Position numbers and translations under genes: made by a program. A stretch of 64,000 nucleotides of DNA from Chloroflexota bacterium (GTDB taxonomy: Bacteria; Chloroflexota; Anaerolineae; Anaerolineales; UBA4823): contig JAQBDA010000196.1 of assembly GCA_032124675.1 (NCBI GenBank), forward strand, positions 207-64,206, in the 5' to 3' direction. Below, piece after piece: positions 1 to 59,211 of this stretch. Below the pieces are notes generated by a model that was not told the origin of the DNA, searched no databases, and worked only from the letters and a program-made list of their open reading frames with translations. Numbering within the stretch: the first letter of the stretch is position 1; each line of letters begins with the position of its first letter.

Positions 1-644
1 GCCGGAATCTTGTCATGGTGCAAGGACTGGGCGCGCAGGGCATGGTCTGCGCCGCCTTTATGGCGCTGCCAGTGTACCAGCAGGGTCCGGTCATCTACTA
101 TCTGCAGGCGGTACATCCCGACATTTCGCAGCCCAGTCTCTGGATCACGCGTGATCACCTGCGGCAGGGTGATGAACCTGCCGCCATCCTTTGGCCAGCA
201 TTTGAGGATGGGCAGGTGGTTGAGGTTTAGATCATCTGTATACACCACCTGCTGGACTGGGGCTCGGCGGACTATCTTAGGCTTCAGGCCGATGGTTTTG
301 AATACATCGTACAGGTCACGCCCACGGCTCATCACCTGTCCTACACCTTTTGGCAGCCGCAGGTCGATGATTTTTGCCAGCTCTTGGTTCAGTTCGTCCA
401 GGTCGTCCACCCCTAATGCCCCTGCCATACGCTCGGCTGAGCCAAACGTGTTGATCAGGACGGGCATATCAAAACCGGGAACATTCTCAAACAGCAGAGC
501 TTTATTGCGCTCCGCTGAGGCCTTGCTCACGCGGTCTGTGATCTCGGTGATTTCAAGCTCAGGGGATACTGGCAGTTTTATGCGTGCCAGCTGTCCGCGT
601 TTATCCAATAAACCAATAAAATCGCTTAAGTTCGTAAACACCAT
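1..644 (-). CDS. UbiD-family (prenyl-FMN dependent) decarboxylase, N-terminal part; the gene runs off the left edge
   Basis: Absent from the ORF track because it is open at the window edge. My minus-strand translation from ATG 644 reads MVFTNLSDFIGLLDKRGQLARIKLPVSPELEITEITDRV...FENVPGFDMPVLINTFGS...LKCWPKDGGRFITLPQVITRDPETGLRNVGMYRLQIVDDRTLLVHWQRHKGG, a typical UbiD N-terminus. The + ORF 10..681 is its shadow. Confidence 0.8.
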   Translation of the reverse strand, partial: MVFTNLSDFIGLLDKRGQLARIKLPVSPELEITEITDRVSKASAERNKALLFENVPGFDMPVLINTFGSAERMAGALGVDDLDELNQELAKIIDLRLPKGVGQVMSRGRDLYDVFKTIGLKPKIVRRAPVQQVVYTDDLNLNHLPILKCWPKDGGRFITLPQVITRDPETGLRNVGMYRLQIVDDRTLLVHWQRHKGGADHALRAQSLHHDKIP

Positions 645-831
645 ATCTCACCCTTGGCAGTTGGCGGCAGCAGTGAATTAAAGCGGCATCGCTATGCCCC
701 CAGCAGGGGGCTCCCCCATCATGAAAACCCGGATTTCCGGGGTTGCGGCTGTTAATTACCCAGGTAAGACCCGCCCCGATCCGAGCCGGACAAACCTGGC
801 TGACAAACCTGTTAATTATAGCATGATTGGC

Positions 832-860
832 TTGACACAGCCTATCGCCTATGCTACATT
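832..860 (+). promoter_or_regulatory. Candidate sigma-A promoter for the Roadblock-V4R-REC operon
   Basis: TTGACA (832-837), 17-nt spacer, TACATT (855-860), about 110 nt upstream of the Roadblock start. Sequence match only. Confidence 0.35.
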
Positions 861-974
861 TAGTTTGCGCTCCTGGCGTCGCTTTCATGAAATTTTGTAA
901 AAAAATCTGGCGGTGACGAGGAGTTTCCCATTTTATTGAGGTCTGGTAGGACAGATAAAGGAGTGGCAATATTG

Positions 975-1343
975 ATGAAATCTCGCTCCCAACTGATGGT
1001 AGAACGCTTACGCGACCTGCAGGCTTCCTCGCCTGATATCGAAGCCTCAGCCGTGGTTAGCGTCGATGGATTGAGCATTGCCTCTGCGCTTCCACAGGGG
1101 GTGGAAGAAGACCGGGTTTCGGCGATGTCGGCGGCCATGCTCTCCCTGGGTGAGCGTATTGCAACTGAGCTTGGTCGTGGAACCCTCGATCAGGTGTATA
1201 TCAAGGGTGAGAAGGGTTATGTCATCCTGATGTCGGTGGGTGAGGAAGCAGTCTTGACAGCATTAGCACGCGAGCAGGCCAAGCTGGGTCTGATCTTCCT
1301 GGATATGCGCCGAGCCACCGAGGATCTATCGAAATTGATCTAG
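975..1343 (+). CDS. Roadblock/LC7 (MglB/CvnB-like) domain protein
   Basis: MKSRSQLMVERLRDLQASSPDIEASAVVSVDGLSIASALPQGVEEDRVSAMSAAMLSLGERIATELGRGTLDQVYIKGEKGYVILMSVGEEAVLTAL fits the Roadblock/LC7 pattern and size (~120 aa). Alternative in-frame TTG starts at 936 and 972. Confidence 0.85.
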   Translation: MKSRSQLMVERLRDLQASSPDIEASAVVSVDGLSIASALPQGVEEDRVSAMSAAMLSLGERIATELGRGTLDQVYIKGEKGYVILMSVGEEAVLTALAREQAKLGLIFLDMRRATEDLSKLI

Positions 1344-1352
1344 AGTAATCCA

Positions 1353-1988
1353 ATGGAACCAATCTCAAAAAGCGGCTATTACTACGCCAATAAAATCGTG
1401 CTTATCTCGCTCAATTCCCTCCAGGAGGTGATGGGCAAGAACGGCGTGAATGCAATCCTGAATCTGGCGCATCTCTCATATCTGATCGACAACTACCCTC
1501 CAAATAATCTCGATCGCCAGTTTGATTTTGCCGATTTTTCAGCCATCAACCTGGCGTTGGAGGAGATGTACGGGCCGCGCGGCGGACGAGGGCTGGCGCT
1601 GCGAGCCGGCCGGGTGGCTTTTGCAGACTCGCTGCGCAATTTCGGCGCCCTGGCCGGAGTCGGTGACCTGGCTTTCAAAGTGCTGCCGCTGCAAACGAAA
1701 ATGCGCATCGGTATTCCTGTCATGGCAAAAATATTCAGCCAGATCAGCGACCAACACAGCACCGTTCAAGAGAGAGACGAAGGCTATGTATATACCATCC
1801 ACCGCTGCCCGGTGTGCTGGGGGAGGAACAACTCGGACAAGCCGGTATGCTTCATGGCGATTGGCTTGCTGCAGGGTGGCCTGAAGTGGCTCTCCGGGGG
1901 GCAGGAATTCCGTGTCAATGAGTCCAAATGCTTCGCCATGGGGGATGAAGTTTGCGAATTTATCATCGAAAAAAGACCCATGAGCTAA
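1353..1988 (+). CDS. V4R (4-vinyl reductase-like) domain protein
   Basis: C-terminal Cys-rich V4R-type core: CPVCWGRNNSDKPVCF...ESKCFAMGDEVCEF. Starts 10 nt after the Roadblock gene. Paralog of 56242..56871. Confidence 0.75.
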   Translation: MEPISKSGYYYANKIVLISLNSLQEVMGKNGVNAILNLAHLSYLIDNYPPNNLDRQFDFADFSAINLALEEMYGPRGGRGLALRAGRVAFADSLRNFGALAGVGDLAFKVLPLQTKMRIGIPVMAKIFSQISDQHSTVQERDEGYVYTIHRCPVCWGRNNSDKPVCFMAIGLLQGGLKWLSGGQEFRVNESKCFAMGDEVCEFIIEKRPMS

Positions 1989-1998
1989 AGGCCTTACT

Positions 1999-2841
1999 GT
2001 GGCTGATGGTAAGCAGTCGATTCTGGTTGTTGAAGACGACACTGATGTGGCGGATATGCTGAGTGCATACTTCCACATCCAAGGATATGAGGTCGAAACA
2101 GCCAATTTGGGGGGAGCAGCCCTGGAAGCCTGCCAGATTCACCGTCCCGACCTGATCATCTTGGATATCCGCTTGCCGGATATCGATGGCTACCAGGTAG
2201 CCGGTCAGCTGCGCAGAAGCCGCCGGACCGACGACATCCCGATCATTTTTCTAACTGAGAAACGCAACCGTGCTGACCGCCTGCAGGGCTTGGAGCTTGG
2301 GGCGGATGATTACATTACTAAGCCTTTTGATATTCAGGAGCTGCGCTTGCGGGTGCGGAATGCGCTGCGCCGCTCTTCCCACGGGACGCTGACCAACCCT
2401 GTAACCCAGCTTCCTGAAGGACAGCTGGTGGACGAGCGGCTGCTGGAACTGCTTGAGAGTGATCGGTGGGCACTGCTGACCGTGAAGCTGGTCAACCTGG
2501 AACATTTCCGTGAAGCGTACGGTTTTGTTGCTTCGGATGACGTTGTTCGGGCTGTCAGCCTGATGATCCAGAATGCTGTCCGTGATCTGGGCAGCCCGAA
2601 TGATTTTATCGGTCAGCTTTCCCTATCACAGTTTATCCTGGTCACCATGCCGGACACATCCGACCAGATAGCTGCCCGGTTGGATGCCCGGCTGGAACAA
2701 TCGCTGGATTATTTTTACCCTCTGAAGGACCGTGAGTCCGACAGAAAGAAGAACAGCCGGCTGAAAATCGTTATCCGGCGGCACCACCCGGCAGATGGTG
2801 TCTTTACCGACCTGTACATGTTGAAACAAAACCTGGTATAG
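1999..2841 (+). CDS. Response regulator: receiver domain plus degenerate GGDEF-like domain
   Basis: REC motifs ILVVEDD, DLIILDIRLPDIDG, DDYITKPF. The C-terminal domain has GGDEF-like architecture (NPVTQLPEG...FREAYGFVASDDVVRAV) but LSLSQF where GGDEF is expected. GTG start. Paralog of 53884..54783. Confidence 0.8.
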   Translation: MADGKQSILVVEDDTDVADMLSAYFHIQGYEVETANLGGAALEACQIHRPDLIILDIRLPDIDGYQVAGQLRRSRRTDDIPIIFLTEKRNRADRLQGLELGADDYITKPFDIQELRLRVRNALRRSSHGTLTNPVTQLPEGQLVDERLLELLESDRWALLTVKLVNLEHFREAYGFVASDDVVRAVSLMIQNAVRDLGSPNDFIGQLSLSQFILVTMPDTSDQIAARLDARLEQSLDYFYPLKDRESDRKKNSRLKIVIRRHHPADGVFTDLYMLKQNLV

Positions 2842-2865
2842 TAAACAAGCAGACTGGACTGAGCC

Positions 2866-3633
2866 ATGCGAACGACGATCGTCATACCGACCTACAACGA
2901 GGCGGAGAACCTGCCCAAGCTGGCAGCTGCAATATTCGAGCTGCCCCTTAACGATCTCCATTTAATGGTAGTCGATGATAACAGCCCGGACGGCACAGGC
3001 GAGCTGGCAGATGAGCTGGCTGACCGCTACCCTTCTCGCATGAGCGTGCTGCACCGCCCTGGCAAGATGGGGCTGGGCACTGCTTACATCCAGGGTTTCA
3101 TCCGGGCACTCTCAACGGGTGCCGAGGCTGTTGGACAGATGGATGCCGATTTTTCCCACCCCCCGGAGAAGCTGCTCGAGCTGCACGAGACCCTGGGATC
3201 CTGTGATGTAGCGATGGGCTCGAGGTACGTCCCCGGTGGTGCGGTAGACGAGCGCTGGCCGGCTTGGCGGAAGGGGCTGTCCAGCTTTGGCAACCTATAC
3301 GCCAGGACGATCCTGCGCATGCCCATCCTTGATGCAACCGGAGGCTTCCGGTTATGGCGCAAGGAGACTTTATCCGGGATGCCGCTCGACCGGGTGCGTT
3401 CTAACGGCTACGCCTTTCAAGTCGAGATGGCCTATATCGCATTCCGGCTCGGCTATACTTTCACTGAAGTGCCGATTTATTTTGCTGACCGCCGCTGGGG
3501 GCAATCGAAGATGTCTTTCCGCATTCAGCGTGAGGCTGCGGTAAGGGTATGGCAGCTGCCTGTCGAATACCGGGACCTGACCCACCAGGCGCCGGTCGGT
3601 TCCTCATCCACAGTCTACGATAACGCCAGGTGA
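2866..3633 (+). CDS. GT2 polyprenol-phosphate mannosyltransferase (Ppm1/DPM1-like)
   Basis: IVIPTYNEAENL, MVVDDNSPDGTGE, GLGTAYIQGF, QMDADFSHPP are classic for this family. Confidence 0.85.
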   Translation: MRTTIVIPTYNEAENLPKLAAAIFELPLNDLHLMVVDDNSPDGTGELADELADRYPSRMSVLHRPGKMGLGTAYIQGFIRALSTGAEAVGQMDADFSHPPEKLLELHETLGSCDVAMGSRYVPGGAVDERWPAWRKGLSSFGNLYARTILRMPILDATGGFRLWRKETLSGMPLDRVRSNGYAFQVEMAYIAFRLGYTFTEVPIYFADRRWGQSKMSFRIQREAAVRVWQLPVEYRDLTHQAPVGSSSTVYDNAR

Positions 3634-4463: not shown

Positions 4464-4507
4464 TCAATTCCCCCGGTTTGATGGTAGCCGGTCATCAAAG
4501 GAACTAT

Positions 4508-8226: not shown

Positions 8227-8419
8227 ACTATATAATAATGGTATATCAATTTACATGCGACGATCAGCCATCGCAGTTGACAGGGTGGGAGTTCTCGAAA
8301 GTTGTGAGGAATTGAAATTCACAGCCATACGGTGCTCCCGGCACGGCATATGATTCTAACAGAGAATTAATCTCAGGCCGTATCTTTTTGTCTGATCTGG
8401 CGTCATAACTGGTGGAGAA

Positions 8420-46443: not shown

Positions 46444-46821
46444 CTAACTACCCTTATTTTCGGCCAGGATGGCGTTTACGCGTTCGGTCAATTGGTCAGG
46501 AGCGAAAGGCTTCAATATGTATTCTATGGCTCCGGCCTCCAGCCCGGTCTGGACCTCTTTCTCCTGCCCCTTCGCAGATAAGAATACAACTGGGATGTGC
46601 CTAGTCGTTTCATCGGTTTTAATCTTTTCACAGGCCTCGTAACCCGTCATGCGCGGCATTCGTACGTCGAGCAAGATCAGGTCTGGTGAGAGTTCGCGGG
46701 CTTTTTCATATGCTTCCTCACCATTTGCCGTAGCGGTGACTTCATGCCCGGCAAAACTGAGTGTGAAATTGATCAGATCTCGGATATCGCGTTCGTCTTC
46801 AGCAATTAATATTCTTGCCAT
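46444..46821 (-). CDS. Single-domain CheY-like response regulator
   Basis: ILIAEDE, DLILLDVRMPRMTG, LSAKG, ILKPF. Starts 9 nt after the kinase stop. Confidence 0.9.
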   Translation of the reverse strand: MARILIAEDERDIRDLINFTLSFAGHEVTATANGEEAYEKARELSPDLILLDVRMPRMTGYEACEKIKTDETTRHIPVVFLSAKGQEKEVQTGLEAGAIEYILKPFAPDQLTERVNAILAENKGS

Positions 46822-46830: not shown

Positions 46831-49800
46831 TCATTTTTCTGGATTGTAGACCGGCAGCGTAAATGAGAAGGTGCTGCCTTCACCAGGTACGCCGCTGCTT
46901 TCCAGCCAGATCTTCCCATCGTGCATGTCTACCAGGTGCTTGACGATCGATAACCCAAGCCCCGTACCAGAGGTCGCCAATACAAAAGGATGCTCGCCGC
47001 GGTAAAACCGCTCGAATACTCGCGGCTGTAAATCAAGCGGGATGCCGATACCGGTATCCTGAATATCGATCTGGACGTCGTCACCAGCCCGCCGCGTGCG
47101 CACCAGGATGCGACCACCTTCTGCCGTATAGCAGTAAGCATTTTCCAGCAGGTTCTCAATGATACGACGCACCTGTTCCGGATCACCCAGCACCCTGGGC
47201 AGTTTACGGGGGATATCAGTTTCGATCTGCATCGGTTTATTGTCTTCCTGGGAGCGGCGAGCAAGGTCGGTGGTGGTCTCATGTGCCAGTGGTGCCAGAT
47301 CGAAATGCTGTATAGAGAGGTTAAGCCGTCCGGATTCTATTCTGGAGATATCCAGAAGGTCATTTACAAGGATCGCCAGACGCTCGGAATTGTTCTTGAC
47401 GATCTCTAGGAAGTGCGCCTGCTGGTTGGTGAGCGGACCGGCGGCACCCATGAGCAGGATATCGACGTAGCCTTTTATCGAAGTCATTGGCGTCCGCAGT
47501 TCGTGGCTGACGGTAGCAACAAACTCAGATTTCAGCCGGTCAACCTCCACCTGGTGGGTGATATCCCGGAAGATCGATACCGTGCCGAGGAAATTATCCC
47601 GCAAGCTTACCGGTGCCAGATGGACTGATACCACTCTTCCATTGTCCAGATCGATCTGCTCGGCATATGTATCCCCGTGGGTAAAGGTGTCTGGATTTTG
47701 CGACCACGTTCGGATGGTGCCCATCCAGGCCTTGGCAGCCTTGCCAAAGATCCCGATGAAATGTTCCAGCGATTTGCCGATGACATTCGACCGGTTGAGC
47801 CCCAGGATGTCCTCGGCAGAGTCGTTGAACAGGGTGATCCTCATCGTCTCATCCGTAACCAGGACACCATCCGCCACATCTTCTAGCATCGCTTTCGTGC
47901 GCTGAGTCTCGATCTGCTGGCTTCTCACCATATTGCCAAGGTCTTCCGCCTGGTCGCGGATCAGCCGGTACAGCTCGGCGTTGTTCACCGCGATAGCTAC
48001 CTGGTTCGCAGCCGCCTGTACCATGTCTAATTGGTCCATTGAGAAATGGTCCACCCTGCGATGGAAGAACAGCAGCGTGCCCAGGGAGACACCACCGATC
48101 AACAGCGGCACACCGATAGCACTGCGATACTCGACGGTGCTGTTGGGCAGCTGCACCCATCTTGGGTCATCCCTGACATCTGGGATGAGAACAGGTTTGC
48201 GCTGCTGGATGATCCAACCTGCCAATCCCTCGTCCGGGTCTAGCGAGGTAAAGAATTCATCCGTAGTAAGCGCGGTCTGGTAGCCGACTGAGGCCAGGTG
48301 ATGCAGCTTCTTCTCCCCGGTGCGGGCGAGCAGCACGGTGATGTGCTCTGCATCGATGATCTGGTTGAGCACCTTCAGGGTGCGAGTGAGCACTTGTTCC
48401 AGGTCCAGGCTGGCGGAAAGCTCGGTGATCAGCCGCAGCAGGGTTTCGGTGCGCTGATGAGCGCGCGCCAGCTGCTCTGTGCGTTCGCGCACGCGCTGGT
48501 CGAGTTCATTCGTCAGGCTGCTTGTCTCTGCATACAGGCGACCGTTCTGGATGGCGATGGCCGCCTGGTTGCTGATAGTTTTTGCCAGCCCGACTTCATC
48601 ACCGGTGTAATGGTATGGTTGCTCCGAATGTACCAGGAGGATGCCGTGCAGGTCGCTTCCTGTAGCCAGCGACAGCGCCAGCAGGGACTGCGTGCCGATC
48701 TCGTCCAGATACTCCTTGAGAGGTGCCAGCTCTTCTTCCGAGCTAACGTCCTCGCAGTAAAAGACACCCAGGGTCTGCCGCAGGCGCTCGAATATCGGGG
48801 CATCAGGAATTGTGCGTGGTATGGTCACGTCTCGCGGGGGGAGCTCGGCTTTCAATACTGCCTTTCCCGATGTATCGAACATAACCGCTGAGACAGCAGT
48901 GCAGTTGAGTGTTTCGATGAGCTCCTGGAGTATGATTGACAGCAGATGGTCTGGATCGAGGGAACCGCTCAATTGGGTGGAGAAGCGGTTGAGCATTTCC
49001 AGGCGCTGCGAACGCTGGTCGAGGTCCGCGGCTCGGGATACGATCTGCTGGTAGAGGTTTGCATTTTCCAGGGCAACGGCCGCCTGTCCTGCAAAAGCGA
49101 TGGCAATCTGGATATGCTCGGCACTGTAAAAGTCTTCCTCGTCCTTTTCCAGAGCGATAACACCGATTACCTCACCGCCTGCGACAAGCGGGAGTCCCAG
49201 CCAGGAGGGGTTTGGGTTTTCCACCAGGGACGGGAAACGAGGGTCGTTTCGTACATCTCCGACATAGATCGCCTGGCAGGTATCTATCATCTCACGCAGC
49301 AAGAGGCTGTCTTCGATCGAGATCGAGAGCCCGGTGCGGACATCGCTATCAGCAAATCCGCGCGTGCCATGCACGAACATCTGGTCAGCCTGGCGCAGCC
49401 ACAGCGTGCCGGTATTGAATGGCAGAATAGCCTCCAGTTGGTCCAGCAATGAGCCAACCAGTTCCTCTGGCTGAAGGTTGGAGGAGATGATTGCCGCTGC
49501 TCCGGTCAGTGCCTGAAGCTGGTTGGCGCGCAGCTCTGCTGCCCGGAACAACCGTGAATACTCCAGGTTCAGCGCGGTTTGCTGGGTCAGGGAGGTCACA
49601 AGCGCCTGGGCATCGATTGAGAAGGCTTCCGGAACCTTGAAATTCTCGACCACCAGCACGCCTAAAGGATCGGTTCCCGGCGCTTTCTGCAGCGGAACGG
49701 CCATACTGGAGACCGGCAGCAAGCCATCGGTGGCGTCATGATAATTGAGCAGCATATCCGAGGTGAGGTTGTATAAACTGGGGAAATTCACTTCTTCCAC

Positions 49801-52800
49801 CCGTATAGGCTGGTTCTTGGCGAACGCTTTGCCAGGCAGGGCTTCTCCGGGCTGGTAGTGAATCTGCATGATCTTTTCCTGGACCACATACCCCGCGGCC
49901 GCCTGTGGTATGAGCAGTTCTTTCTTCGGGTCCCAGATCACCACCAGGCTGGCCTGGGCTAACGGCAGGACATGCAGAGCGCTCTCAACAAGTGTTTGCA
50001 AGATCCGTTCAGGCTCCAGGTTGCTCAGCTGGCGGTTGAAGTCCAGCAGCAGGTTCACTTCAGCCAGGTGACGGCTGATCTCCAGGAGCAGGTTCAAGTT
50101 CTGCAGCGTGATGGCGACATTCCGAGCCAGCAGAGAGAAAAGCTGTTCATCCTCGGCTGAAAATGGCGCCAGAGGTTTCTGGCTGATTGCCAAAATTGCT
50201 GAGTCCAGCCTTGCTCCGATAAAGATCGGTATGCAGATGAAGGATTTTGCCTCCAGGGTGTGCAGCAGTGGAGAAGCAGACCAATCGGAATCTGTCTCCA
50301 GGCGGGAGACCAGGATTTGCTCGCCGCTTTGCAGGGTGTGCAGCAGCGGGTTGCGCTGTCCGATGAGCGCGTCGATCTGGATATTGCCCGGCACTCGCCC
50401 AAGACTGTGCAGTAGATGTGGTCCAAGGTTCCCGGGCTCGACGATCAGGGCAATATCCATGTCCATCCGGGTTAATATCTCTCGCCCGAAGACCATCAAG
50501 ACACTGGAACGGTCGCCCTGGCGGCTGACGATCTCGGAGATATCCATGCCGGAACGGATGCGAGCCGCTCGCTGGCTGAGTTGCTGGACGGCGATTGTCT
50601 GCTCCAGGTCTTTATGCATCAAGATTGGAAGGTGGCTGTGTGCTGTAAGCACAGCCTGCTCAGCTCGGACAAGGTCTTCTTGAATATGCTCTGCACGGGA
50701 CTTCAGCCCGTGAATATTCCGGTGGCTAGTAATGACGTAAGAAGCCTGCTGGACGAAGATATCGAGCGATTCCAAGGTCTGAAGATCAGGGCGCAGGTGA
50801 TCGCGCGGTTCCTGCAGGGTGATAATACCCAATGGCTGCTCGTCGTGGTCTGTCATTGGGATGAAAAGCAGGTCTCCCGGCTGCCAGACATAGCCAGATG
50901 CTGCCTTATCTGCGCCTTTATGTGGTGCTGTGGGGGATTTTTCAACAGGAACGAAGGTCGCTTTCCCCAGTGCGTACTCTGGCAAAATCAGGTCGCTATA
51001 GCTGGCCCATGATACAGGTGCTCTTCCTTCTTCTGGGGCGGAGCCCCGGCTGCCTTCAACTCCGGCTGAGGAGATCAGCTCCTCTCGGTCTGGGTCGTAA
51101 TAATATAAGGACACTCGATCGAACAGGGTCGATTCTTGTATCGTCACTGCAATCTTACTGAGGGAGTTTTCCAGCGCTTCAATTGATCCATCATTTAGTG
51201 ATGTGTTCAGCAGCTTGGCCAGCGATTCAACCCGCCGGTTGAGCTGCTCACTCTGCTGGACTCGTTCCTGGTAGCGGTAAGCGTTGCCAAGTGCAACCGC
51301 GGCCTGCAACGCCAGCGCCTCACAGATATCCATCGCAGTCTGATCGAACAGGCGGGGTGTTTTCGAATGTAGGTGGATCAGCCCGGCAGTGTTACCCTGG
51401 TAGGCAATCGGTACGATGAGTGATGCACGGATATCCCTGTGGGGAGGTGGGCGGGAAGCTTCTTCATCACCGGTTAGATCAGCCGTCTCTGGTTTGTAAT
51501 CATCGCAGATCAGCGCCTCTCCGCTTTGCAGAACGCGCAACTCCAGAGAGTGCATGCTCTCAGGAAGTGGATCTCCAATCTGCAGCAGTATTCCAGGCCA
51601 GGGCATTGGTTGATCGTCGCTTTCCGGCACGGTCAGATCATCCCCATCATTATCGAAGAGAACGATGTTGCCGCAATCGGCATGCGTGGTCTGCCGCACT
51701 TCATCATACACTTGCTGAAGAATTTTATCGAGGTCAAGGTTGGTATTGAGCTCTCTGCTAAGGCGCGTTAACGAGGTGAGCTGGTCGACCCGCTGGCGCA
51801 GGGATTCATCCGTTTGGGTATACAGGGCGGCAGATTCGATCAGGCTTGCAAGCTGCCCGCAGGCAGTGATGACCGTCTGCACATCGCTGTGGGCGAAGAA
51901 ATGCGGCTGGTAGCTGCCCATCAAAAGCTCCCCAATCCCCCGGTCTCGAACGACCAATGGTGCGATGATGGCAGATTTCAAGCCCAGGCTGAGTAGCAGC
52001 GGGTGATACAGACGTGGTAGACGTAGATCATCCTGAATGTCGTCGCTGAATAGATAGTTCTGCGAACGGGCAACGCTCTGGGAAAATTCCGGGTCCTCTG
52101 ATGATATTTCCCCCATCCGGCTGGCAAATTCTGGTGAGATGCCAAATAATGAAGGTTTGTGGAGACGCAGCTCGCCGCGCTCCTGATCGAAGAGCAGCAC
52201 CCCGACCTTGTCGGCGTTCAGCAGTCGACCAAGATCTTGAAGGGAATATTTCAAGACCTCGTCCATTGTGGCAGATGACCCGGTCAGGCTGGCGATGCGG
52301 CGGAGCGTTTCGGCACGCTGTGCCCGGCGGTCCGATTGGTGGATCAACTCGGCGTTCTCAACAATTGGACCGGTCTGACCGGAGATAATCTCAAGCAGCC
52401 GTATATCATCCGGATCGAATGGGGTTTTATCCAGTTTATCGCCCACCAGGATATAGCCGAGGCTTTTACCGCTGGAGGTCAACGGCATCAGAACCATCTG
52501 CGTGATTCCGGCTGCAACAGCCAGATTATCGAACCCAAAAGCCTGCAGCTTGGGATCGGAAGCTGCCTGGTGAGAAATGATTGTTTCCCCTGACAGCCAC
52601 AGCTCCTCTGCCGGTGTTCCTGGTTTTATCACCGTGGTGGCCCATTCGATCACGTCTGCATGCAGCCCCATGAAGGGGTGCTGCCCCTCCAAAGTGTGGC
52701 GGAATTCATCGTACAGGATAAAGCCAAGGAAATTGACATCGATCAGCGGTGCAATGCTTTCGATGAGGTGCAAGAACAGGTTTTTTACATCTCGGCCGGT

Positions 52801-53844
52801 GCCAACTGCTTTGGCAAGATCGGCCAATCCGGCCAGTTCTTTTCCTCGCAGTTGTTCCTCTCTATATAGCAGTGCATTTTTAAGGGCGCTCGACGCTGGA
52901 CCGGATAAGATTTGCAGGATTTCCAGGTCATTCTGGCTGTAAGCTTCTTGGGACAGCGATCTGAGTTCAAGCGTGCCGATTAACTCTCCAGCATTGACCA
53001 GCGGAACGCCGATGAATGATTGTGCAGGCAGGGCGTTCGGGTCTGGGTTTGATACACCGGCAGTAACCCCAATTGAGTCCAGCATTATCACCGGATTGCG
53101 TTTTTCAAGCAGTTGCTCAGAAAATGCTCGAGAGCCTGGTTCATTGATATGGACTTCTAAAGCCCCTCCCCTGGTCTCCGTCATGCTGGCCAGCCTGTAT
53201 ACGGTCAGCTGAAGTCTGTCTGGATCATATAAAGTTACCTCGGCGCTGTCGTACGCGAGCAGGGTTTGGATCTTCTCCAGGATTGCCTTGATTGTGGTCT
53301 CGATATCCAGGCTGGCGGCCATCGCTTGCCCCAGCTCGTTCAGAAGCGAGACCGCACTGCGAGCGTTGTGGGAGTTCTCTTCCTGACCGGCATGCCCGTT
53401 TTTTAGTTCTAACAATGGCTGCACAGGCTGGAATGCGAGCAGATTGGCTTTGTTTTCCCCGTATGGAATGGAGTAAGTCCTGATCTGGACGGTATGCCCG
53501 TTCAAGTGAAGCCGATGGTCACCAGCAATCGAACAGATCTCGAGGAAGGCATCGCTGGGTCTGAATTTGCGGCTGAGGTCTTCGATCGAGGGCAGCTCAT
53601 CCCAGGCATCCAGGTATTCTCGTGCACGGCTGTTGAGATAGGCGACCCGCCCTCCTGCCTGGACGATTAAAACCCCTTCTTCCGTCTGGTCTGGCTCATC
53701 GAATTGGGGCAAAACGGGTGCGGTACTCGAGGTGCCTGGCTGGGTCCGCTGTACCCTGCGTAGCAGAACCAGAGTCAGCAGCGCGGCCGACAAGCCAAGT
53801 ATCACGAAAATGGTACCGAGAATTGAAAAATCTATCTGTGCCAT
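46831..53844 (-). CDS. Giant (2337 aa) membrane-anchored sensor histidine kinase: ~10 GAF-like modules, PAS, HisKA, HATPase_c
   Basis: N-terminal TM (ILGTIFVILGLSAALLTLVLL). Recurrent GAF-type starts: L..L...L....D.......L......L.AD...V.L.D. A PAS module (MLEDVADGVLVTDETMRITLFNDSAEDILG). H-box SHELRTPMTSIKGY, N-box ENLLENAYCYT, G1 DTGIGI, G2 GTGLGLSIV. Confidence 0.9.
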   Translation of the reverse strand: MAQIDFSILGTIFVILGLSAALLTLVLLRRVQRTQPGTSSTAPVLPQFDEPDQTEEGVLIVQAGGRVAYLNSRAREYLDAWDELPSIEDLSRKFRPSDAFLEICSIAGDHRLHLNGHTVQIRTYSIPYGENKANLLAFQPVQPLLELKNGHAGQEENSHNARSAVSLLNELGQAMAASLDIETTIKAILEKIQTLLAYDSAEVTLYDPDRLQLTVYRLASMTETRGGALEVHINEPGSRAFSEQLLEKRNPVIMLDSIGVTAGVSNPDPNALPAQSFIGVPLVNAGELIGTLELRSLSQEAYSQNDLEILQILSGPASSALKNALLYREEQLRGKELAGLADLAKAVGTGRDVKNLFLHLIESIAPLIDVNFLGFILYDEFRHTLEGQHPFMGLHADVIEWATTVIKPGTPAEELWLSGETIISHQAASDPKLQAFGFDNLAVAAGITQMVLMPLTSSGKSLGYILVGDKLDKTPFDPDDIRLLEIISGQTGPIVENAELIHQSDRRAQRAETLRRIASLTGSSATMDEVLKYSLQDLGRLLNADKVGVLLFDQERGELRLHKPSLFGISPEFASRMGEISSEDPEFSQSVARSQNYLFSDDIQDDLRLPRLYHPLLLSLGLKSAIIAPLVVRDRGIGELLMGSYQPHFFAHSDVQTVITACGQLASLIESAALYTQTDESLRQRVDQLTSLTRLSRELNTNLDLDKILQQVYDEVRQTTHADCGNIVLFDNDGDDLTVPESDDQPMPWPGILLQIGDPLPESMHSLELRVLQSGEALICDDYKPETADLTGDEEASRPPPHRDIRASLIVPIAYQGNTAGLIHLHSKTPRLFDQTAMDICEALALQAAVALGNAYRYQERVQQSEQLNRRVESLAKLLNTSLNDGSIEALENSLSKIAVTIQESTLFDRVSLYYYDPDREELISSAGVEGSRGSAPEEGRAPVSWASYSDLILPEYALGKATFVPVEKSPTAPHKGADKAASGYVWQPGDLLFIPMTDHDEQPLGIITLQEPRDHLRPDLQTLESLDIFVQQASYVITSHRNIHGLKSRAEHIQEDLVRAEQAVLTAHSHLPILMHKDLEQTIAVQQLSQRAARIRSGMDISEIVSRQGDRSSVLMVFGREILTRMDMDIALIVEPGNLGPHLLHSLGRVPGNIQIDALIGQRNPLLHTLQSGEQILVSRLETDSDWSASPLLHTLEAKSFICIPIFIGARLDSAILAISQKPLAPFSAEDEQLFSLLARNVAITLQNLNLLLEISRHLAEVNLLLDFNRQLSNLEPERILQTLVESALHVLPLAQASLVVIWDPKKELLIPQAAAGYVVQEKIMQIHYQPGEALPGKAFAKNQPIRVEEVNFPSLYNLTSDMLLNYHDATDGLLPVSSMAVPLQKAPGTDPLGVLVVENFKVPEAFSIDAQALVTSLTQQTALNLEYSRLFRAAELRANQLQALTGAAAIISSNLQPEELVGSLLDQLEAILPFNTGTLWLRQADQMFVHGTRGFADSDVRTGLSISIEDSLLLREMIDTCQAIYVGDVRNDPRFPSLVENPNPSWLGLPLVAGGEVIGVIALEKDEEDFYSAEHIQIAIAFAGQAAVALENANLYQQIVSRAADLDQRSQRLEMLNRFSTQLSGSLDPDHLLSIILQELIETLNCTAVSAVMFDTSGKAVLKAELPPRDVTIPRTIPDAPIFERLRQTLGVFYCEDVSSEEELAPLKEYLDEIGTQSLLALSLATGSDLHGILLVHSEQPYHYTGDEVGLAKTISNQAAIAIQNGRLYAETSSLTNELDQRVRERTEQLARAHQRTETLLRLITELSASLDLEQVLTRTLKVLNQIIDAEHITVLLARTGEKKLHHLASVGYQTALTTDEFFTSLDPDEGLAGWIIQQRKPVLIPDVRDDPRWVQLPNSTVEYRSAIGVPLLIGGVSLGTLLFFHRRVDHFSMDQLDMVQAAANQVAIAVNNAELYRLIRDQAEDLGNMVRSQQIETQRTKAMLEDVADGVLVTDETMRITLFNDSAEDILGLNRSNVIGKSLEHFIGIFGKAAKAWMGTIRTWSQNPDTFTHGDTYAEQIDLDNGRVVSVHLAPVSLRDNFLGTVSIFRDITHQVEVDRLKSEFVATVSHELRTPMTSIKGYVDILLMGAAGPLTNQQAHFLEIVKNNSERLAILVNDLLDISRIESGRLNLSIQHFDLAPLAHETTTDLARRSQEDNKPMQIETDIPRKLPRVLGDPEQVRRIIENLLENAYCYTAEGGRILVRTRRAGDDVQIDIQDTGIGIPLDLQPRVFERFYRGEHPFVLATSGTGLGLSIVKHLVDMHDGKIWLESSGVPGEGSTFSFTLPVYNPEK

Positions 53845-53883
53845 GACGTTCCAGGTCTGTACCTTAGCCGACTGATTTTGGGT

Positions 53884-54783
53884 TTATATATCCGACCGCC
53901 TGGCCTCTGCGGCGATTTCGGTTATCTCGCGAATATCAGCAAAATCATATTGGGTTGGCGAAACAACCCCTACCGACATCGACATTAATGGAGTCTTGAT
54001 CTGCTGTCCGGATTCATTGATTGTGACGACATAGCCCTGTTCACGGTCGATAAAGCTGTAATGGGCGAGCACATCTTCTGAGAAGCGTGTTTTCAGAGAC
54101 TGCCTGATCTTCGGGGCGTTTTCGTCGCTGGTTATGATGATGAAGCTGTCTCCCCCGGCATGACCGATAAAATCATCCTGAGTGCCCTGGTCGTCGATCA
54201 CTTCACCGATCATCATGGCGGTGAAGCGCAGCACGTCGTCGCCTGCGACGAAGCCATACACATCCTTGAAGGTATCAAAGTGATTGATGCGCACATCCAT
54301 CAGCGCCCATGCTGGCTGCCGGATGATGCGCCGCAGCTGTTCTTCGATCAGTCTGCCGGATGGCAGTCCGGAACGGGGGTCGGTTAAGCTCTGCTGTTCC
54401 GCCCGGGAGATCGCCCGCTGGACGCGTAGTTTCAGCTCTTCGATATCAAATGGTTTGGTGATATAGTCATCCGCTCCCAGCTCAAGACCCTGCAGCTTGT
54501 CACTGCGTTCATCTTTCTGGGTGAGAAAGATGATCGGCACGTGGCTGGTACGTGTGTTCGTCCGTAAAATTCGGCATACTTCGAAGCCGTCGATATCCGG
54601 CAGCATAATATCGAGCACGATCAGGTGCGGCAGGCTCTGGCGGGTTTTCTCCAGCGCGTCATTGCCGCGCGGTGCTGTCTCTACTTCATAGTTGTGCCCG
54701 GTGAAGTAGATCTTCAGCATATTCAATATGTCAAAATCATCTTCGACGATCAATAGGCGAGGTTTACCCATCATGACCTCCAT
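53884..54783 (-). CDS. Response regulator: receiver plus degenerate GGDEF (GGDSF) domain
   Basis: LLIVEDD, HLIVLDIMLPDIDG, DDYITKPF. The GGDEF-like domain has HAGGDSFIII and no RxxD I-site. The likely true start is ATG 54771 (GGAGG 5 nt upstream). Paralog of 1999..2841. Confidence 0.85.
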   Translation of the reverse strand: MEVMMGKPRLLIVEDDFDILNMLKIYFTGHNYEVETAPRGNDALEKTRQSLPHLIVLDIMLPDIDGFEVCRILRTNTRTSHVPIIFLTQKDERSDKLQGLELGADDYITKPFDIEELKLRVQRAISRAEQQSLTDPRSGLPSGRLIEEQLRRIIRQPAWALMDVRINHFDTFKDVYGFVAGDDVLRFTAMMIGEVIDDQGTQDDFIGHAGGDSFIIITSDENAPKIRQSLKTRFSEDVLAHYSFIDREQGYVVTINESGQQIKTPLMSMSVGVVSPTQYDFADIREITEIAAEARRSDI

Positions 54784-54872
54784 GTAGTCCGTGAGAACCG
54801 TTTACAGTGCTCGTTCGATTCATGCCGTGGTACCGGTCCATTCCGATAATGATTGCTTCTGCCGCCTGGCGG

Positions 54873-56165
54873 TCACCAGGATTCAACTGCCAGTTCCTCG
54901 ATCCTGGGATATAAACGTGGGTGGAGGTTGGCATAAGATAGCTGGTGGTGGTCGCTATCCTCGAAACGAATATCGTGCTCAATTACCCGGCGGTCTCTAG
55001 TGGCATATAACACAACATCGGATTCGATCGTTCGCGCCGGAAAGATGATCAGACCCGCACCAATCCGGGTGTTATGACCGATGCAGCCGCCTAACACAGG
55101 TCGATTGGAATAGTTCAGCTGGGAGTTGCCATCTCTTGCGCGGATAGGGGTCAAGACCAGATTGAAATCTGTGAAGGTTGTCCCGGCGCCAATGAAAGTA
55201 TTGCGACCGACCACGCACATCTGCAAACAGGTATTCTGAGCGACCATGCTGTTTTCCATCAGTGTTGTCATAAACAGAGATGACCGGAAGGGGAGAAAAG
55301 ATCCATCCCCGACGACGGACAGCATGAGCTGGCAGTCCTGGGAGATATTGACATTGCTGCCGATAATACAGTTTTCGATGACAGCCCCGGCGTTGATGGT
55401 GACGTTGTCACCGATGATGGTCGGGCCGTGAATGGTGGCATGCGGATCGATGATGCAGTTGCGGCCGACATGTACCAGCTCCGAGCTTTCCAGCACCTGC
55501 TTCCCCTCCAGCATGGCTTTGGCAAGGATCTTCAGCTTGTAAAAGGGGAAATTCTCCAGCTTCTCCTCGAACCGGGCGCCGCGGGTGAACTGTCCGAAGA
55601 CGATATCGGCGATAAAGATATGCACCCATGAATCAATGGCGATCAGGCTGCGCCGCGGCACTTGAAAAGTCAGGTCACCCTGTTCATACGCCATGTAGGT
55701 AGGGACGTGATAATATCCAGCCTCCGTAGAATCCAGGTCGATCACCACCGGCTCGGCGGACATGGGATCGATCTCGGAATGGATGCCTTCCGGGAAGTAC
55801 CACAATTCGCTAAGATACAGGTCGCCATCTGGCGTGTAGGATGTGGATAGGGGGAGAGCGTGTTCTCTGAATGCTGGGTCGTTTGCAGAGCAGGCCGCCT
55901 GGCAGGGTCGCCGGCGCAGCTTTGCTTCAGCAAGGAATGCTTCCATATAATCGTTGTCGAAATATAGGTTGTCCCTGTAGAGCAGGCATTCTTCTTCTAC
56001 CCTGGGGAATTTAGCACCGTAAGGCAGCTCCATCTCCCGGTGTGTGTGGGGAGCGAGTATGTCCCTTTGAGCCAGCCATAGGGGTTTATTCTGGATGCGT
56101 AAATCCCGCGCACGCTCGTTGAACGGGTATATATGGCGTGGGTCTTGCAGGATGATCTTTATCAT
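54873..56165 (-). CDS. Hexapeptide-repeat (left-handed beta-helix) protein with an unknown ~230-aa N-terminal domain
   Basis: C-terminal half: VGRNCIIDPHATIHGPTIIGDNVTINAGAVIENCIIGSNVNISQDC...VVGRNTFIGAGTTF...IGHNTRIGAGLIIFP. I could not find a nucleotidyltransferase G-x-G-x-R signature. Confidence 0.6.
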   Translation of the reverse strand: MIKIILQDPRHIYPFNERARDLRIQNKPLWLAQRDILAPHTHREMELPYGAKFPRVEEECLLYRDNLYFDNDYMEAFLAEAKLRRRPCQAACSANDPAFREHALPLSTSYTPDGDLYLSELWYFPEGIHSEIDPMSAEPVVIDLDSTEAGYYHVPTYMAYEQGDLTFQVPRRSLIAIDSWVHIFIADIVFGQFTRGARFEEKLENFPFYKLKILAKAMLEGKQVLESSELVHVGRNCIIDPHATIHGPTIIGDNVTINAGAVIENCIIGSNVNISQDCQLMLSVVGDGSFLPFRSSLFMTTLMENSMVAQNTCLQMCVVGRNTFIGAGTTFTDFNLVLTPIRARDGNSQLNYSNRPVLGGCIGHNTRIGAGLIIFPARTIESDVVLYATRDRRVIEHDIRFEDSDHHQLSYANLHPRLYPRIEELAVESW

Positions 56166-56241
56166 AGCGCTGGACCGGAACCTGTCTGCTCCATTGGATA
56201 TGGATCTTCTGGCGGCACAGGATTAATCGTTGATGCCGCGG

Positions 56242-56871
56242 TCATTCTATTGGGACCTTCTCAATACTTATCGCACAGCTCGGATCGCCTTTGGCGACGC
56301 ATAGGGTCTCCTGGACATTAAAGAATTTGCCTCCGCTTACCCAATTGAGAGCCTCTTGCAGTGTCCCGACTGCCAGATGGCAGGCAGGATTGTCCTCATG
56401 GCGATGGTAGCAGAGCGGGCAGTTTGTCATATGCCAGTAGAAGCTTTCTTCGTCCTCCTCCAGCCGGACCTGCTGATCAGTATTCTGGTTGAATATCCCG
56501 GCAAAAATTCTGCCCCCCTGGCGGATTTTTGTATTTTGTGGCAGCAATCGAAAATCCTGGTCCGAGATATCGATGAGCTGACCAAATTGGCGCAGGCCAT
56601 ATTTGAAACATGCACGTCCTGACCGCACCGCCAGTCCTTGACCACCCCGCGCTCCATATACTGCCTCCAGGGAAGACATCATCTTGCTGATCTGGGTGTA
56701 CGGCACATCGCGATCCAAATTATCCGGCGGAAAGTTCTGCACCAGGTGCACCAGATCGGCATGCTTGAGCACGGCCTCAAGCCCGGAGTCTCCGAGAACT
56801 TCCTCCAAACCCAGGAGGATGATCTGTCCCAGCATATTTGGGTAATACATCTCAGGGGTTTGTCCGGTCAT
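56242..56871 (-). CDS. V4R domain protein (paralog of 1353..1988)
   Basis: FPPDNLDRDV, YGARGGQGLAVRSGRA, CPLCYHRHEDNPACH...ETLCVAKGDPSCA. ATGA overlap with the upstream hydrolase gene. Confidence 0.75.
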   Translation of the reverse strand: MTGQTPEMYYPNMLGQIILLGLEEVLGDSGLEAVLKHADLVHLVQNFPPDNLDRDVPYTQISKMMSSLEAVYGARGGQGLAVRSGRACFKYGLRQFGQLIDISDQDFRLLPQNTKIRQGGRIFAGIFNQNTDQQVRLEEDEESFYWHMTNCPLCYHRHEDNPACHLAVGTLQEALNWVSGGKFFNVQETLCVAKGDPSCAISIEKVPIE

Positions 56872-57665
56872 TGGGTTTGTATCTCATCATCCAGAAAGTC
56901 CCGTAAAGTTTTCATGAAACGTTGAGGCTCGTCCAACATAATAAAATGCCCGGATGCTGGGAACAGCTCGATGCGGGCGTGGCTGATGCCTTCATGCATG
57001 GGCATCCACTGCTTGCCGCTGACGACAATGTCTTTCCTGCCGTACATCCCCATCGCGGGGATCTTAATTTTGGTTAGATGCGGTCGCAGGTCGGTGCTAC
57101 GCAGGGATGCGATGCTCAGCAGGAACGATTCGAGCGACACCCGCGAGAGATCATGATCCATCATCGCAGGCCAGCGCTTATCTCGAGTGTAGAACGGTGC
57201 CAATGCCCGGTAGCTGAGCTGGAACGCCCATAGATTGTTGTACACCAGCCAGGCTACCGTCCTGTAACCAAATAGTTTTAACAGAATGGAGAGCGATGAG
57301 CCTACTATCGGGGAACCGATCACAGCCACTTTGCCAACCCGGTCTGGATGGTGGATCGCGACTGACAACCCGACTGTCCCCCCCATGCTGTGACCGACCA
57401 GCGGAGCGCGGGCGATGCCCAACTGCTCCATAAATTGGTTTACCATGCTTACAAAAACTTGGACTGAATAATTCTCCAGTTTCTTTCCAGATTCACCAAA
57501 ACCCCAAAAATCTAATGCATATGTCCGGTAATGCTGGCCGAGATAGGCCATGGTCTCCTGCCACAGGCCCCATGACCCTAGCCAGCCATGCAGCAAAATA
57601 ACCGGGTCCCCCCTCCCGTAAACTTCGTAATGGACGATCCCTTGATCGGTAGTAATTGATGACAC
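56868..57665 (-). CDS. Alpha/beta hydrolase with an intact Ser-Asp-His triad
   Basis: HGWLGSW, nucleophile elbow GHSMGG, GRKDIVV, SGHFIMLDEP. Confidence 0.85.
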   Translation of the reverse strand: MSSITTDQGIVHYEVYGRGDPVILLHGWLGSWGLWQETMAYLGQHYRTYALDFWGFGESGKKLENYSVQVFVSMVNQFMEQLGIARAPLVGHSMGGTVGLSVAIHHPDRVGKVAVIGSPIVGSSLSILLKLFGYRTVAWLVYNNLWAFQLSYRALAPFYTRDKRWPAMMDHDLSRVSLESFLLSIASLRSTDLRPHLTKIKIPAMGMYGRKDIVVSGKQWMPMHEGISHARIELFPASGHFIMLDEPQRFMKTLRDFLDDEIQTQ

Positions 57666-57688
57666 GGCAATTGAACTATCTTCGTCAC

Positions 57689-58228
57689 TTATGCCTCGCC
57701 CAAATCCATCTCAGCCAATATGCTGTAGAGCAGTTCTAACAAGACCGACTTGACATTCTCTTTATCGACTGCTACACAAGGCAGCAATTTGACATTCGAG
57801 TCCAGTCGCAAAGCGATCCGCATGTCCTCCGAATCCCAGGCATCTTCTTTGTCTTGTTTATTGGCTGCAACGACATACGGGGTGGGGGCGTAGGCGCGGA
57901 ATGTTTCCAGGATGCTGCGCGCTTCCCGAAACGTCTCGGGTCGTGTGCTGTCAACCATTACCACGAACCCCAACATGCCTTCCGAGAGAATTTCCCACAT
58001 AAAGTCGAACCGTTTCTGACCTGGAGTGCCGAATAGATACAGCACCAGGTCGTCATCCACTGTAATGCGTCCAAAATCCATCGCTACGGTGGTGGTCTCT
58101 TTGACCCGTTCGGCCACTGAGGAAATCTTTCGCTCCGTGGAAACGACATCGATCTCACTTACAGAGCGGATAAACTCGGTTTTGCCAGCATTGAAAGGTC
58201 CTGTGACCACCATTTTAACTGTTTGCAT
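57689..58228 (-). CDS. MglA/CvnD-like small Ras-superfamily GTPase (COG2229-type ATP/GTP-binding protein)
   Basis: G1 GPFNAGKT; switch I Thr run (ETTTVAMDFG); G3 FGTPGQ, with the canonical Asp replaced as in MglA-like proteins; G4 NKQD. 179 aa. Confidence 0.85.
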   Translation of the reverse strand: MQTVKMVVTGPFNAGKTEFIRSVSEIDVVSTERKISSVAERVKETTTVAMDFGRITVDDDLVLYLFGTPGQKRFDFMWEILSEGMLGFVVMVDSTRPETFREARSILETFRAYAPTPYVVAANKQDKEDAWDSEDMRIALRLDSNVKLLPCVAVDKENVKSVLLELLYSILAEMDLGEA

Positions 58229-58291
58229 AGTTAGCTACCCTTACACTTGTGTAAAGAAGAATCGATGATGTTGATTGGGCCATGATATCTC

Positions 58292-59113: not shown

Positions 59114-59211
59114 AGCGGCCTCATTACATGCTGGTGCGCTGGTTTATCCGGATTTGATATTGTAGCTGCATTCGCCATCTGGCTGATCCTATCCTCTAAA
59201 ATCATTATTCC

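Follow-up and report, generated by a model that had tools for sequence, protein, structure and literature searches.

A few model bacteria govern their polarity, motility and development with small Ras-like GTPase switches of the MglA/MglB type, and the characterised relatives of MglA group 5, the group of concern here, are the MglA-MglB polarity switches of Myxococcus and Thermus. We analysed a 64,000-nt stretch of DNA (the window) from an uncultured Anaerolineales bacterium (Chloroflexota), a sediment organism. Near its left end lies an operon in which a Roadblock (MglB-like) gene is followed by genes encoding a V4R protein (V4Ra) and a receiver protein (RECa), and toward its right end lies a second operon that encodes an MglA-family GTPase together with paralogs of the V4R and receiver proteins (V4Rb and RECb). 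Our preferred reading, to which we assign a probability of about 0.6, is that the Roadblock operon represents the MglB arm, now detached, of a group-5 MglA switch of Chloroflexota type and that the operon at 46.4-59.1 kb represents the other arm. An earlier interpretation made from the DNA letters without database searches (the sequence-only reading) had proposed one split system working in trans, and that proposal is supported by five independent comparative lines: sequence signatures, a gene census, gene order, archaeal gene clusters and evolutionary rates.

The framework for such systems is the survey of Wuichet and Sogaard-Andersen (2014; PMC4316618), the supplementary tables of which were the source of our MglA/MglB census and in which an MglA is coupled when an mglB gene lies within four genes. 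In that survey the motif GTPGQ marks MglA groups 2-5, the MglB proteins coupled to groups 2-5 carry an Asp-Gly pair, and the canonical group-5 gene order, found in Aquificae, Roseiflexus, cyanobacteria and Deinococcus, is MglB>PATAN>MglA (PMC4316618). Adjacency of PATAN to MglA, which is occasional for groups 1 and 5, is already known, as are unlinked or orphan MglA and MglB genes (PMC4316618). No group-5 member is among the experimentally characterised proteins named in PMC4316618, and our search of the literature found no characterised MglA of this widespread group.

The Roadblock operon of the window (975-3633) is composed of four genes, of which GT2 is probably the last member.

975..1343, plus strand: Roadblock/LC7 (MglB-like) protein, 122 aa; Pfam Robl_LC7 E=1.4e-19, 70 bits; DG pair in VSVDGLS; putative GTPase-activating protein (GAP) or regulator of the GTPase encoded at 57689-58228
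1353..1988, plus strand: V4Ra, a full-length V4R / H-NOX / Bet3-fold protein, 211 aa; Pfam PF02830 E=4.4e-14, 52.8 bits; putative Zn/thiol or small-ligand sensor
1999..2841, plus strand: RECa, REC plus degenerate GGDEF-like domain, 280 aa; REC E=4e-30; GGDEF E=1.7e-06, 28 bits; putative phospho-input adaptor
2866..3633, plus strand: GT2 glycosyltransferase, polyprenyl-phosphate sugar synthase-like; Pfam Glycos_transf_2 E=1.7e-26; weak NCBIfam AglJ/PpgS/ArnC-type matches

The gaps between these genes are 9 nt (Roadblock-V4Ra), 10 nt (V4Ra-RECa) and 24 nt (RECa-GT2). Contigs of two estuary metatranscriptomes (X16 and X20) match both loci (window positions 600-4600 and 53000-62000) with 95-99% identity, the depth being low and much alike at the two; these contigs report the presence of RNA and carry neither strand nor relative expression. 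Single contigs span 1206-1938 (Roadblock into V4Ra) and 1980-3666 (the end of V4Ra, RECa and the whole of GT2), and such crossing of the junctions is compatible with a four-gene operon.

The genes of the second operon, all read from the minus strand, are given in the order of transcription.

58292..59113, minus strand: PATAN (DUF4388) protein, first gene of the operon; Pfam DUF4388 E=4e-21
57689..58228, minus strand: MglA-family small GTPase, 179 aa; Pfam ATP_bind_1, Ras and Arf, NCBIfam small_GTP and PDB MglA matches
56868..57665, minus strand: alpha/beta hydrolase; Pfam Abhydrolase_1 E=1.4e-29
56242..56871, minus strand: V4Rb, a V4Ra paralog (43% identical) with the same Cys/Glu set
54873..56165, minus strand: hexapeptide-repeat (left-handed beta-helix) protein, 430 aa; Pfam and NCBIfam matches in the C-terminal half only
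53884..54783, minus strand: RECb, REC plus degenerate GGDEF (GGDSF), 47% identical to RECa
46831..53844, minus strand: giant sensor histidine kinase, 2337 aa; Pfam gives nine GAF domains, PAS, HisKA and HATPase
46444..46821, minus strand: stand-alone receiver, 125 aa, downstream of the giant kinase

Open reading frame and Pfam analyses bore out the domains, coordinates and 9-10 nt spacings that the sequence-only reading had given for the Roadblock, V4R and REC genes, and its claim of paralogy holds for both pairs (V4Ra and V4Rb, 43% identity, E=2e-61; RECa and RECb, 47% identity, E=8e-79). Its observation of complementary gene content, a Roadblock without a GTPase at one locus and a GTPase without a Roadblock at the other, also stands: a tblastn search for both proteins (E<=10) found no second Roadblock and no second GTPase gene in the window. 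A GTPase gene just past the left window edge, or another Roadblock gene that pairs with the GTPase at 57689, had been named as findings that would tell against a split system, and neither was found in the window or within 10 kb of its edges. These flanks, read in other assemblies of the same organism, hold UbiD, ABC transporter, LysM, UbiA, YkuD and S41 peptidase genes on the left, with no GTPase, and M50 peptidase, 658-aa protein, GAF kinase and GlnA genes on the right, with no Roadblock.

The first line of evidence is that the two proteins carry matching signatures. The GTPase is a single-domain protein in the 150-240 aa range with the motifs G1 GPFNAGKT (GxxxxGK[ST]), G3 FGTPGQ and G4 NKQD (NKxD), as in MglA groups 2-5. 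It was also considered as a member of group 1 (the Myxococcus/Thermus type) and rejected because its G3 is GTPGQ rather than TVPGQ; in addition its G2 (TTVAMDFG) has Thr and not the intrinsic Arg. The GTPase probably belongs to MglA group 5: its gene lies beside PATAN, as occasionally in groups 1 and 5, and a tentative placement with ANT_06780 of Anaerolinea thermophila follows from equal length (179 aa) and gene context. The Roadblock scores 70 bits against a Robl_LC7 cut-off of 23 bits, is matched by solved Roadblock/LC7 (MglB) structures and has its Asp-Gly pair in VSVDGLS (residues 29-35). As the nearest Roadblock gene is 55 kb from the GTPase gene, the two are not coupled and both are orphans by the definition of PMC4316618; MglA membership does not depend on coupling, 59 of the 449 members being orphans.

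The second line is the gene census. The complete genome of Anaerolinea thermophila UNI-1 has one MglA (ANT_06780, group 5, 179 aa, beside PATAN and without an MglB) and one MglB, the orphan ANT_03760 (PMC4316618). Hence, if the Roadblock regulates any small GTPase, the two proteins are paired by elimination.

Gene order provides the third line. In five related loci (L043, L066, L130, L140 and L160) the two operons are contiguous on one strand with short gaps, in the order Roadblock-V4Ra-RECa-GT2-PATAN-GTPase-hydrolase-V4Rb-hexapeptide protein-...-RECb. The canonical MglB>PATAN>MglA order is thus kept in these loci with extra genes inserted, and the arrangement, which has persisted over species-level divergence, fits with the window having arisen by the split of an ancestral operon.

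The gene neighbourhoods of each half were determined over separate sets of loci. Species-representative genomes scanned with an alignment of the two V4R paralogs gave 80 Roadblock-side loci, all from Anaerolineales/Chloroflexota metagenome-assembled genomes (MAGs) and all with V4Ra orthologs, and a metagenome scan with the window GTPase gave 80 GTPase-side loci (85-93% identity); gene positions were counted only over loci having enough flanking sequence. The Roadblock is immediately upstream of V4Ra in all 78 loci and V4Ra always starts 9-70 nt past it. A REC-degenerate GGDEF gene follows V4Ra in 65 of 76 loci and GT2 keeps its place in 65 of 73. On a neighbour-joining tree RECa was lost in at least six scattered Anaerolineales lineages (in loci L021-L024, L037, L038, L059, L060, L079 and L086 GT2 comes directly after V4R), so RECa is dispensable and the Roadblock-V4R pair is the core of the operon. 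The pair persists at 48-59% V4R identity, even without REC and GT2 (e.g., L178). On the other side PATAN is directly upstream of the GTPase in 51/51 loci, the hydrolase is beside it in 44/48 and V4Rb lies within 1.3 kb in 40/48; the hexapeptide protein (31/33) and RECb (22/25) are likewise in place, and most of the longer related loci, as well as L176, have the giant kinase after RECb. At a V4R identity of only 34% (L174/L175) the operon of a relative is simply PATAN-GTPase-V4R, with V4R directly after the GTPase.

The fourth line comes from archaea. Among solved structures the best match of the Roadblock is PDB 7F8M (7f8m_A, E=7.5e-32), of a Thorarchaeota/Lokiarchaeota family, followed by CvnB5 (3leq, 2.9e-08), Rv3364c (3.8e-07) and MglB (about 2e-3); no publication on 7F8M was found in the literature. 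In a complete Thorarchaeota chromosome and in a Lokiarchaeota contig members of this family are encoded in a four-gene cluster composed of a GTPase, a TPR protein, a 1287-aa protein and the Roadblock. Aligned from end to end, the Thorarchaeota Roadblock and that of the window are 48% identical and 75% similar (E=7e-39); between the clustered GTPases and that of the window the identity is 38% (E=9e-33 and 2e-34). The archaeal GTPases share with it the P-loop, FGTPG and NKQD, but have GTPGL in place of GTPGQ and a 55-aa C-terminal extension, and besides the TPR protein their clusters encode a large protein that weakly matches C25 peptidases, but no V4R, PATAN or REC protein. The Thorarchaeal 287-aa neighbour was considered as a PATAN homolog and rejected, as it is the TPR protein. 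A separate observation is that the Thor/Loki Roadblocks (8001-8363 in both L167 and L169) resemble the window Roadblock far more closely than any bacterial MglB or CvnB structure of the PDB does; the likeness suggests either extreme conservation or a transfer across domains, between Asgard archaea and Chloroflexota of sediments.

The fifth line is one of rates: no gene of the Roadblock locus evolves as slowly as the Roadblock, and none of the GTPase locus as slowly as the GTPase. Across 83 related loci identity to the window Roadblock is 79-98% (median 92%), whereas the medians in the Roadblock loci are 61% for REC, 65% for GT2 and 62% for the neighbouring housekeeping gene ksgA, which argues that the Roadblock is under unusually strong constraint. 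The GTPase is 85-93% identical (median 89%) over 82 loci, in which its neighbours range from about 50% to 72%. Both proteins of the proposed pair are thus more conserved than neighbouring genes (61-69%), ksgA among them.

Several points weigh against pairing the two loci. The halves are mostly unlinked: among loci with enough flank, a GTPase gene lay within 6 kb in 1 of 60 and a Roadblock gene within 5 kb in 2 of 22. The five contiguous loci form a single Anaerolineales clade on the neighbour-joining tree, so the contiguous arrangement is one evolutionary event and we discarded it as recurrent independent evidence. The one-to-one census is that of a cultured relative, A. thermophila, and not of the source MAG, and ANT_03760 and ANT_06780 are presumed orthologs of the window genes from length and PATAN context only. 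No Roadblock-V4R or GTPase-V4R fusion was seen among the 150 best representatives of 50%-identity clusters, and distant members of the V4R subfamily (L179 and the array of L181) have no Roadblock or GTPase nearby. Since the depth of the metatranscriptome contigs is flat and extends over flanking genes, carry-over of DNA is possible. Unlinked mglA and mglB genes are common, 59 of 449 MglA and 328 of 749 MglB proteins being orphans (PMC4316618).

The most probable of the alternatives is that the Roadblock operon stands by itself as a sensor module and has nothing to do with the GTPase. The Roadblock would then be only a dimeric scaffold for V4R and REC, and the module would regulate the co-transcribed GT2, and with it glycolipid synthesis for the cell envelope, or some other NTPase. 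The module is indeed unlinked to the GTPase operon in most loci, but the contiguous clade retains MglB>PATAN>MglA and the paralogs of its V4R and REC proteins lie in the GTPase operon. GT2 is retained behind it (65 of 73 loci) and shares a metatranscriptome contig with it, yet the Roadblock-V4R pair is kept without GT2 and REC (L178). Roadblock/LC7 proteins have been implicated in wider NTPase regulation and 328 of 749 MglB homologs are orphans with unassigned partners, which speaks for this alternative; against it, the A. thermophila census counts a single MglB and a single MglA, and the Thor/Loki homologs of Roadblock and GTPase are clustered. On balance we regard a self-contained module as rather unlikely.

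The sequence-only reading had offered a second option, which addresses origin and not function: that two complete ancestral systems arose by duplication and that, after complementary losses, the remnants share parts. Both members of the V4R (43%) and REC (47%) paralog pairs are present throughout the sampled Anaerolineales loci, so the duplication of V4R and REC is old, but duplication of these two genes alone within one operon needs fewer steps. Actinobacteria supply a precedent in duplicated conservons minus mglA (PMC4316618). Nevertheless, a second Roadblock or GTPase of the same type was found in 0 of 160 sampled loci and the contiguous loci read as one canonical operon with insertions, not as two tandem systems. 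We consider this origin very doubtful.

If the Roadblock and GTPase operons are the two arms of one switch, a Roadblock dimer would bind the GTP form of the 179-aa GTPase and control its hydrolysis or localisation, as do MglB with MglA and Roadblocks of the CvnB/MfpD type in the G-protein systems of actinobacteria. V4Ra would sense the redox state or a small hydrophobic ligand and relay this to the Roadblock, and V4Rb could act likewise on the GTPase/PATAN side. The giant GAF kinase is the likely phosphodonor for RECb and the stand-alone receiver, and possibly for RECa; RECa and RECb, on receiving phosphate from it, would act as adaptors comparable to Myxococcus RomR. The output may be synthesis of a cell-envelope glycan or lipid carrier, as weakly hinted by GT2 and the hexapeptide protein, which together may point to an output that leads from a GDP-sugar to a lipid carrier. 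The C-terminal left-handed beta-helix of the hexapeptide protein matches domains of the mannose-1-P guanylyltransferase / GlmU / eIF2B-epsilon type, and its N-terminal 225 aa gave no match. Each half thus has one sugar-metabolism-like gene (54873-56165, minus strand; 2866-3633, plus strand).

V4Ra belongs to the V4R family by sequence (52.8 bits against a PF02830 cut-off of 31 bits) and by fold. Its AlphaFold2 model (pLDDT 78) has a complete H-NOX/V4R/Bet3-type fold, and Foldseek searches with the model returned H-NOX domains first (TM 0.54-0.61) and TRAPPC3/Bet3 next (TM 0.4-0.6), with probability 1.0. The five cysteines that the sequence-only reading had aligned between the two paralogs (in V4Ra C152 and C155 of CPxC(152-155), C166, C193 and C201) are, with E190, conserved in 82-84 of 84 V4Ra and 39-44 of 44 V4Rb orthologs. 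In a profile search of PDB sequences C166/E190/C193/C201 aligned with C155/E178/C181/C189 of MopR, residues that we take to be the ligands of its structural Zn site. A conserved three-Cys cluster is described for the V4R domains of PoxR and MopR (PMC5847659) and a Zn site for PoxR and Thor-TRAPPC3 (2024 study of Asgard proteins). In MthMsvR, a redox-sensitive archaeal regulator, the five V4R cysteines are a CxxC plus three conserved cysteines, and in MaMsvR mutation of the conserved cysteines changes redox-dependent DNA binding (PMC3729527); V4Ra has a weak NCBIfam MsvR match.

Judged from these alignments, the five-Cys set is mostly the known V4R Zn/redox site to which a family-specific CPxCW[G/E]R motif is added; the latter falls at the sole low-confidence loop of the model (residues 156-160). 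The earlier suggestion of metal or cofactor binding thus gains support from the MopR Cys/Glu alignment and the five-Cys pattern of MsvR. The most economical reading is that V4Ra is a sensor, either a Zn/thiol redox sensor or one for a small ligand, and an iron-sulfur (Fe-S) site may be an alternative use of the cysteines. CX2CX3H, the motif of RsrA/MsvR type, was tried as a conserved motif and rejected: it is present in the window V4Rb, but its His is found in only 10 of 44 V4Rb and 18 of 84 V4Ra orthologs. The proteins differ from MopR/PoxR and MsvR, with which they share the C-terminal V4R core, (MopR) the Cys/Glu cluster and (MthMsvR) the five cysteines, in that V4Ra is a stand-alone 211-aa V4R protein with no DNA-binding or AAA+ output and has Roadblock and GTPase as partners. 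That V4Ra is instead an enzyme or a cofactor carrier (Fe-S or tetrapyrrole, of BchJ or ATC-hydrolase type) with only incidental adjacency to the Roadblock, for which one could cite the heme-binding H-NOX domains as top structural matches, five Cys and a Glu that could ligate an Fe-S cluster and the relation of V4R to ATC hydrolase in the literature, is highly improbable in view of Roadblock adjacency in 78/78 loci over wide divergence, the adjacency of the paralog to the GTPase, the fusion of relatives to signalling domains (TIR, Ser/Thr kinase) and the alignment of three Cys and the Glu with the MopR cluster.

The receiver domain of RECa has the acidic pocket, acceptor Asp, Thr and Lys of a response-regulator receiver (VEDD, LIILDI, FLTEK and ITKPF, respectively). 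Of 72 RECa orthologs, 60-67 keep VEDD, FLTEK and ITKPF, and the acceptor-Asp motif, which aligns between RECa and RECb, is conserved in 29/29 RECb. The GGDEF domains retain their fold (Pfam 28 bits for RECa, with the match restricted to profile positions 5-110, and 42 bits for RECb). The signature is degenerate in both, as the sequence-only reading had noted for RECa: RECa has LSLSQF, which differs from ortholog to ortholog, and RECb has GGD[N/S]F. For this reason neither protein is a cyclase. The RxxD I-site, expected five residues upstream, is absent from both (SPND in RECa and TQDD in RECb) and the two are probably not I-site receptors of cyclic di-GMP. We infer by analogy that they are phosphorylation-dependent adaptors fed by the giant GAF kinase.

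Compared with the MglA group 5/MglB/PATAN systems of PMC4316618, the Anaerolineales system has the same GTPGQ GTPase beside PATAN, the same DG-pair Roadblock and a similar link to response regulators (compare RomR). It differs in that the Roadblock gene is 55 kb away on the opposite strand, that V4R is a constant neighbour of both halves and that the conserved operons also include REC-degenerate GGDEF proteins, a giant GAF kinase, an alpha/beta hydrolase and a hexapeptide protein. The actinobacterial conservon/Mfp systems (CvnA kinase, CvnB Roadblock, CvnC DUF742 and CvnD GTPase) likewise unite a kinase, a Roadblock and a GTPGQ-type GTPase. In contrast, neither window locus has a DUF742/CvnC-type protein, PATAN, V4R and REC-degenerate GGDEF proteins being found instead, and the genes lie in two operons and in another phylum. 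The lack of a DUF742 protein and of a single operon means that the system is not a conservon. No description was found in the literature of a dedicated V4R subfamily constantly associated with both a Roadblock and a GTPase, nor of paired REC-degenerate GGDEF adaptors or a two-operon architecture kept throughout the sampled Anaerolineales loci.

The switch envisaged here would thus be spread over two conserved operons, both with a V4R protein, and would be wired to a two-component phosphorelay through the dead-GGDEF receivers. The function of prokaryotic V4R proteins has been described as unclear, and it is from V4R that Bet3, a vesicle-tethering TRAPP subunit of eukaryotes, has been proposed to descend (PMC2253512); the link to Roadblock and GTPase therefore gives V4R a concrete and testable role and bears on the origin of eukaryotic GTPase-regulator complexes. 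Chloroflexota are a phylum with almost no signalling biochemistry, and the three or four small soluble proteins involved are suited to direct experiment.

A bolder proposal is that Roadblock-V4R is a platform of two folds, one Roadblock/longin-like and one Bet3-like, that directly binds and regulates a Ras-like GTPase, and hence a prokaryotic counterpart, possibly a relative, of the TRAPP core guanine nucleotide exchange factor (GEF). The likeness to the TRAPP core and Ragulator is a fold-level parallel only: the V4Ra model matches TRAPPC3/Bet3, and both folds are genetically tied to a small GTPase. Other TRAPP subunits have a longin fold, to which that of Roadblock is related (PMC3747258). 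With V4R akin to the ancestor of Bet3 and Roadblock akin to longin, the pair is a suggestive parallel to the Rab GEF, a lead and not membership. The window proteins have no detectable sequence similarity to TRAPP subunits, and H-NOX fits the V4Ra model better than does Bet3; we deem a TRAPP-like platform distinctly unlikely. Were it correct, the V4R ancestor of Bet3 would have regulated GTPases before eukaryotes, and the 48% identity with the Thor/Loki Roadblock would be the mark of such modules having been exchanged between Chloroflexota of sediments and Asgard archaea. Small GTPase genes of the Lokiarchaeon MK-D1 are generally not in operons with Roadblock, longin or TRAPPC3 genes (2024 Asgard study), which makes the bacterial V4R-Roadblock-GTPase linkage the more informative.

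Several features adjoin the two operons.

644..1, minus strand: ubiD-type decarboxylase, divergent from the Roadblock operon
832..860, plus strand: promoter-like site, TTGACA-17 nt-TACATT with extended TG (10 of 12 positions), about 115 nt upstream of the Roadblock start; candidate only
3615-4463, minus strand: ksgA, convergent with GT2 at the operon end
59396-61603, minus strand: GAF-GAF-GGDEF protein with intact GGDEF and RxxD I-site (RQVD...GGDEF)

The Roadblock operon and ubiD have a 330-nt divergent intergenic region in common. Promoter and terminator scans gave nothing above shuffled sequences, and because promoter-like sites are no commoner in the region than in shuffles the 832..860 site is listed only as a candidate. 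The Roadblock ATG at 975 is preceded by AAGGAG at 11-nt spacing. A TTG at 936 was also considered as the start and is unlikely, since the gene calls on six other contigs give the 122-aa form. The gene for the GAF-GAF-GGDEF protein is 283 nt upstream of the PATAN gene and occupies the same position in L087; an active cyclase thus accompanies two receiver proteins with dead GGDEF domains. The giant kinase (46831-53844) is unusually large and of cytoplasmic type, its nine GAF domains following a single N-terminal hydrophobic segment, and a second GAF kinase, of 1102 aa, is encoded directly past the right window edge (L170). In many related GTPase operons (L091, L095, L112, L116 and others) some 1.1 kb separate the gene of the hexapeptide protein from that of RECb, a gap that is absent from the window; in L066 it (8743-9822) is occupied by a gene for a 359-aa protein with a Shikimate_DH-like NAD(P)-binding domain.

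The V4R subfamily comprises 180 clusters at 50% identity (E<=1e-30), all named members of which are from Chloroflexota. Some relatives (P0188, P0207, P0216, P0213 and P0276) are fused to an N-terminal TIR_2, to a Ser/Thr kinase plus TIR_2 or to DUF433, and in those fusions V4R appears to be the sensor module of TIR-type signalling or defence-like proteins. In L181 (698-6639; GCA_964457375.1, CAYWFK010000006.1) seven paralogous V4R genes encoding proteins of 212-215 aa form a tandem array that, with no Roadblock or GTPase within 6 kb, adjoins cytochrome b/Rieske and succinate dehydrogenase genes. The organism or its close relatives are widespread in marine, estuarine and aquatic sediments, and sediment metagenomes of several studies hold positions 900-3700 almost whole.

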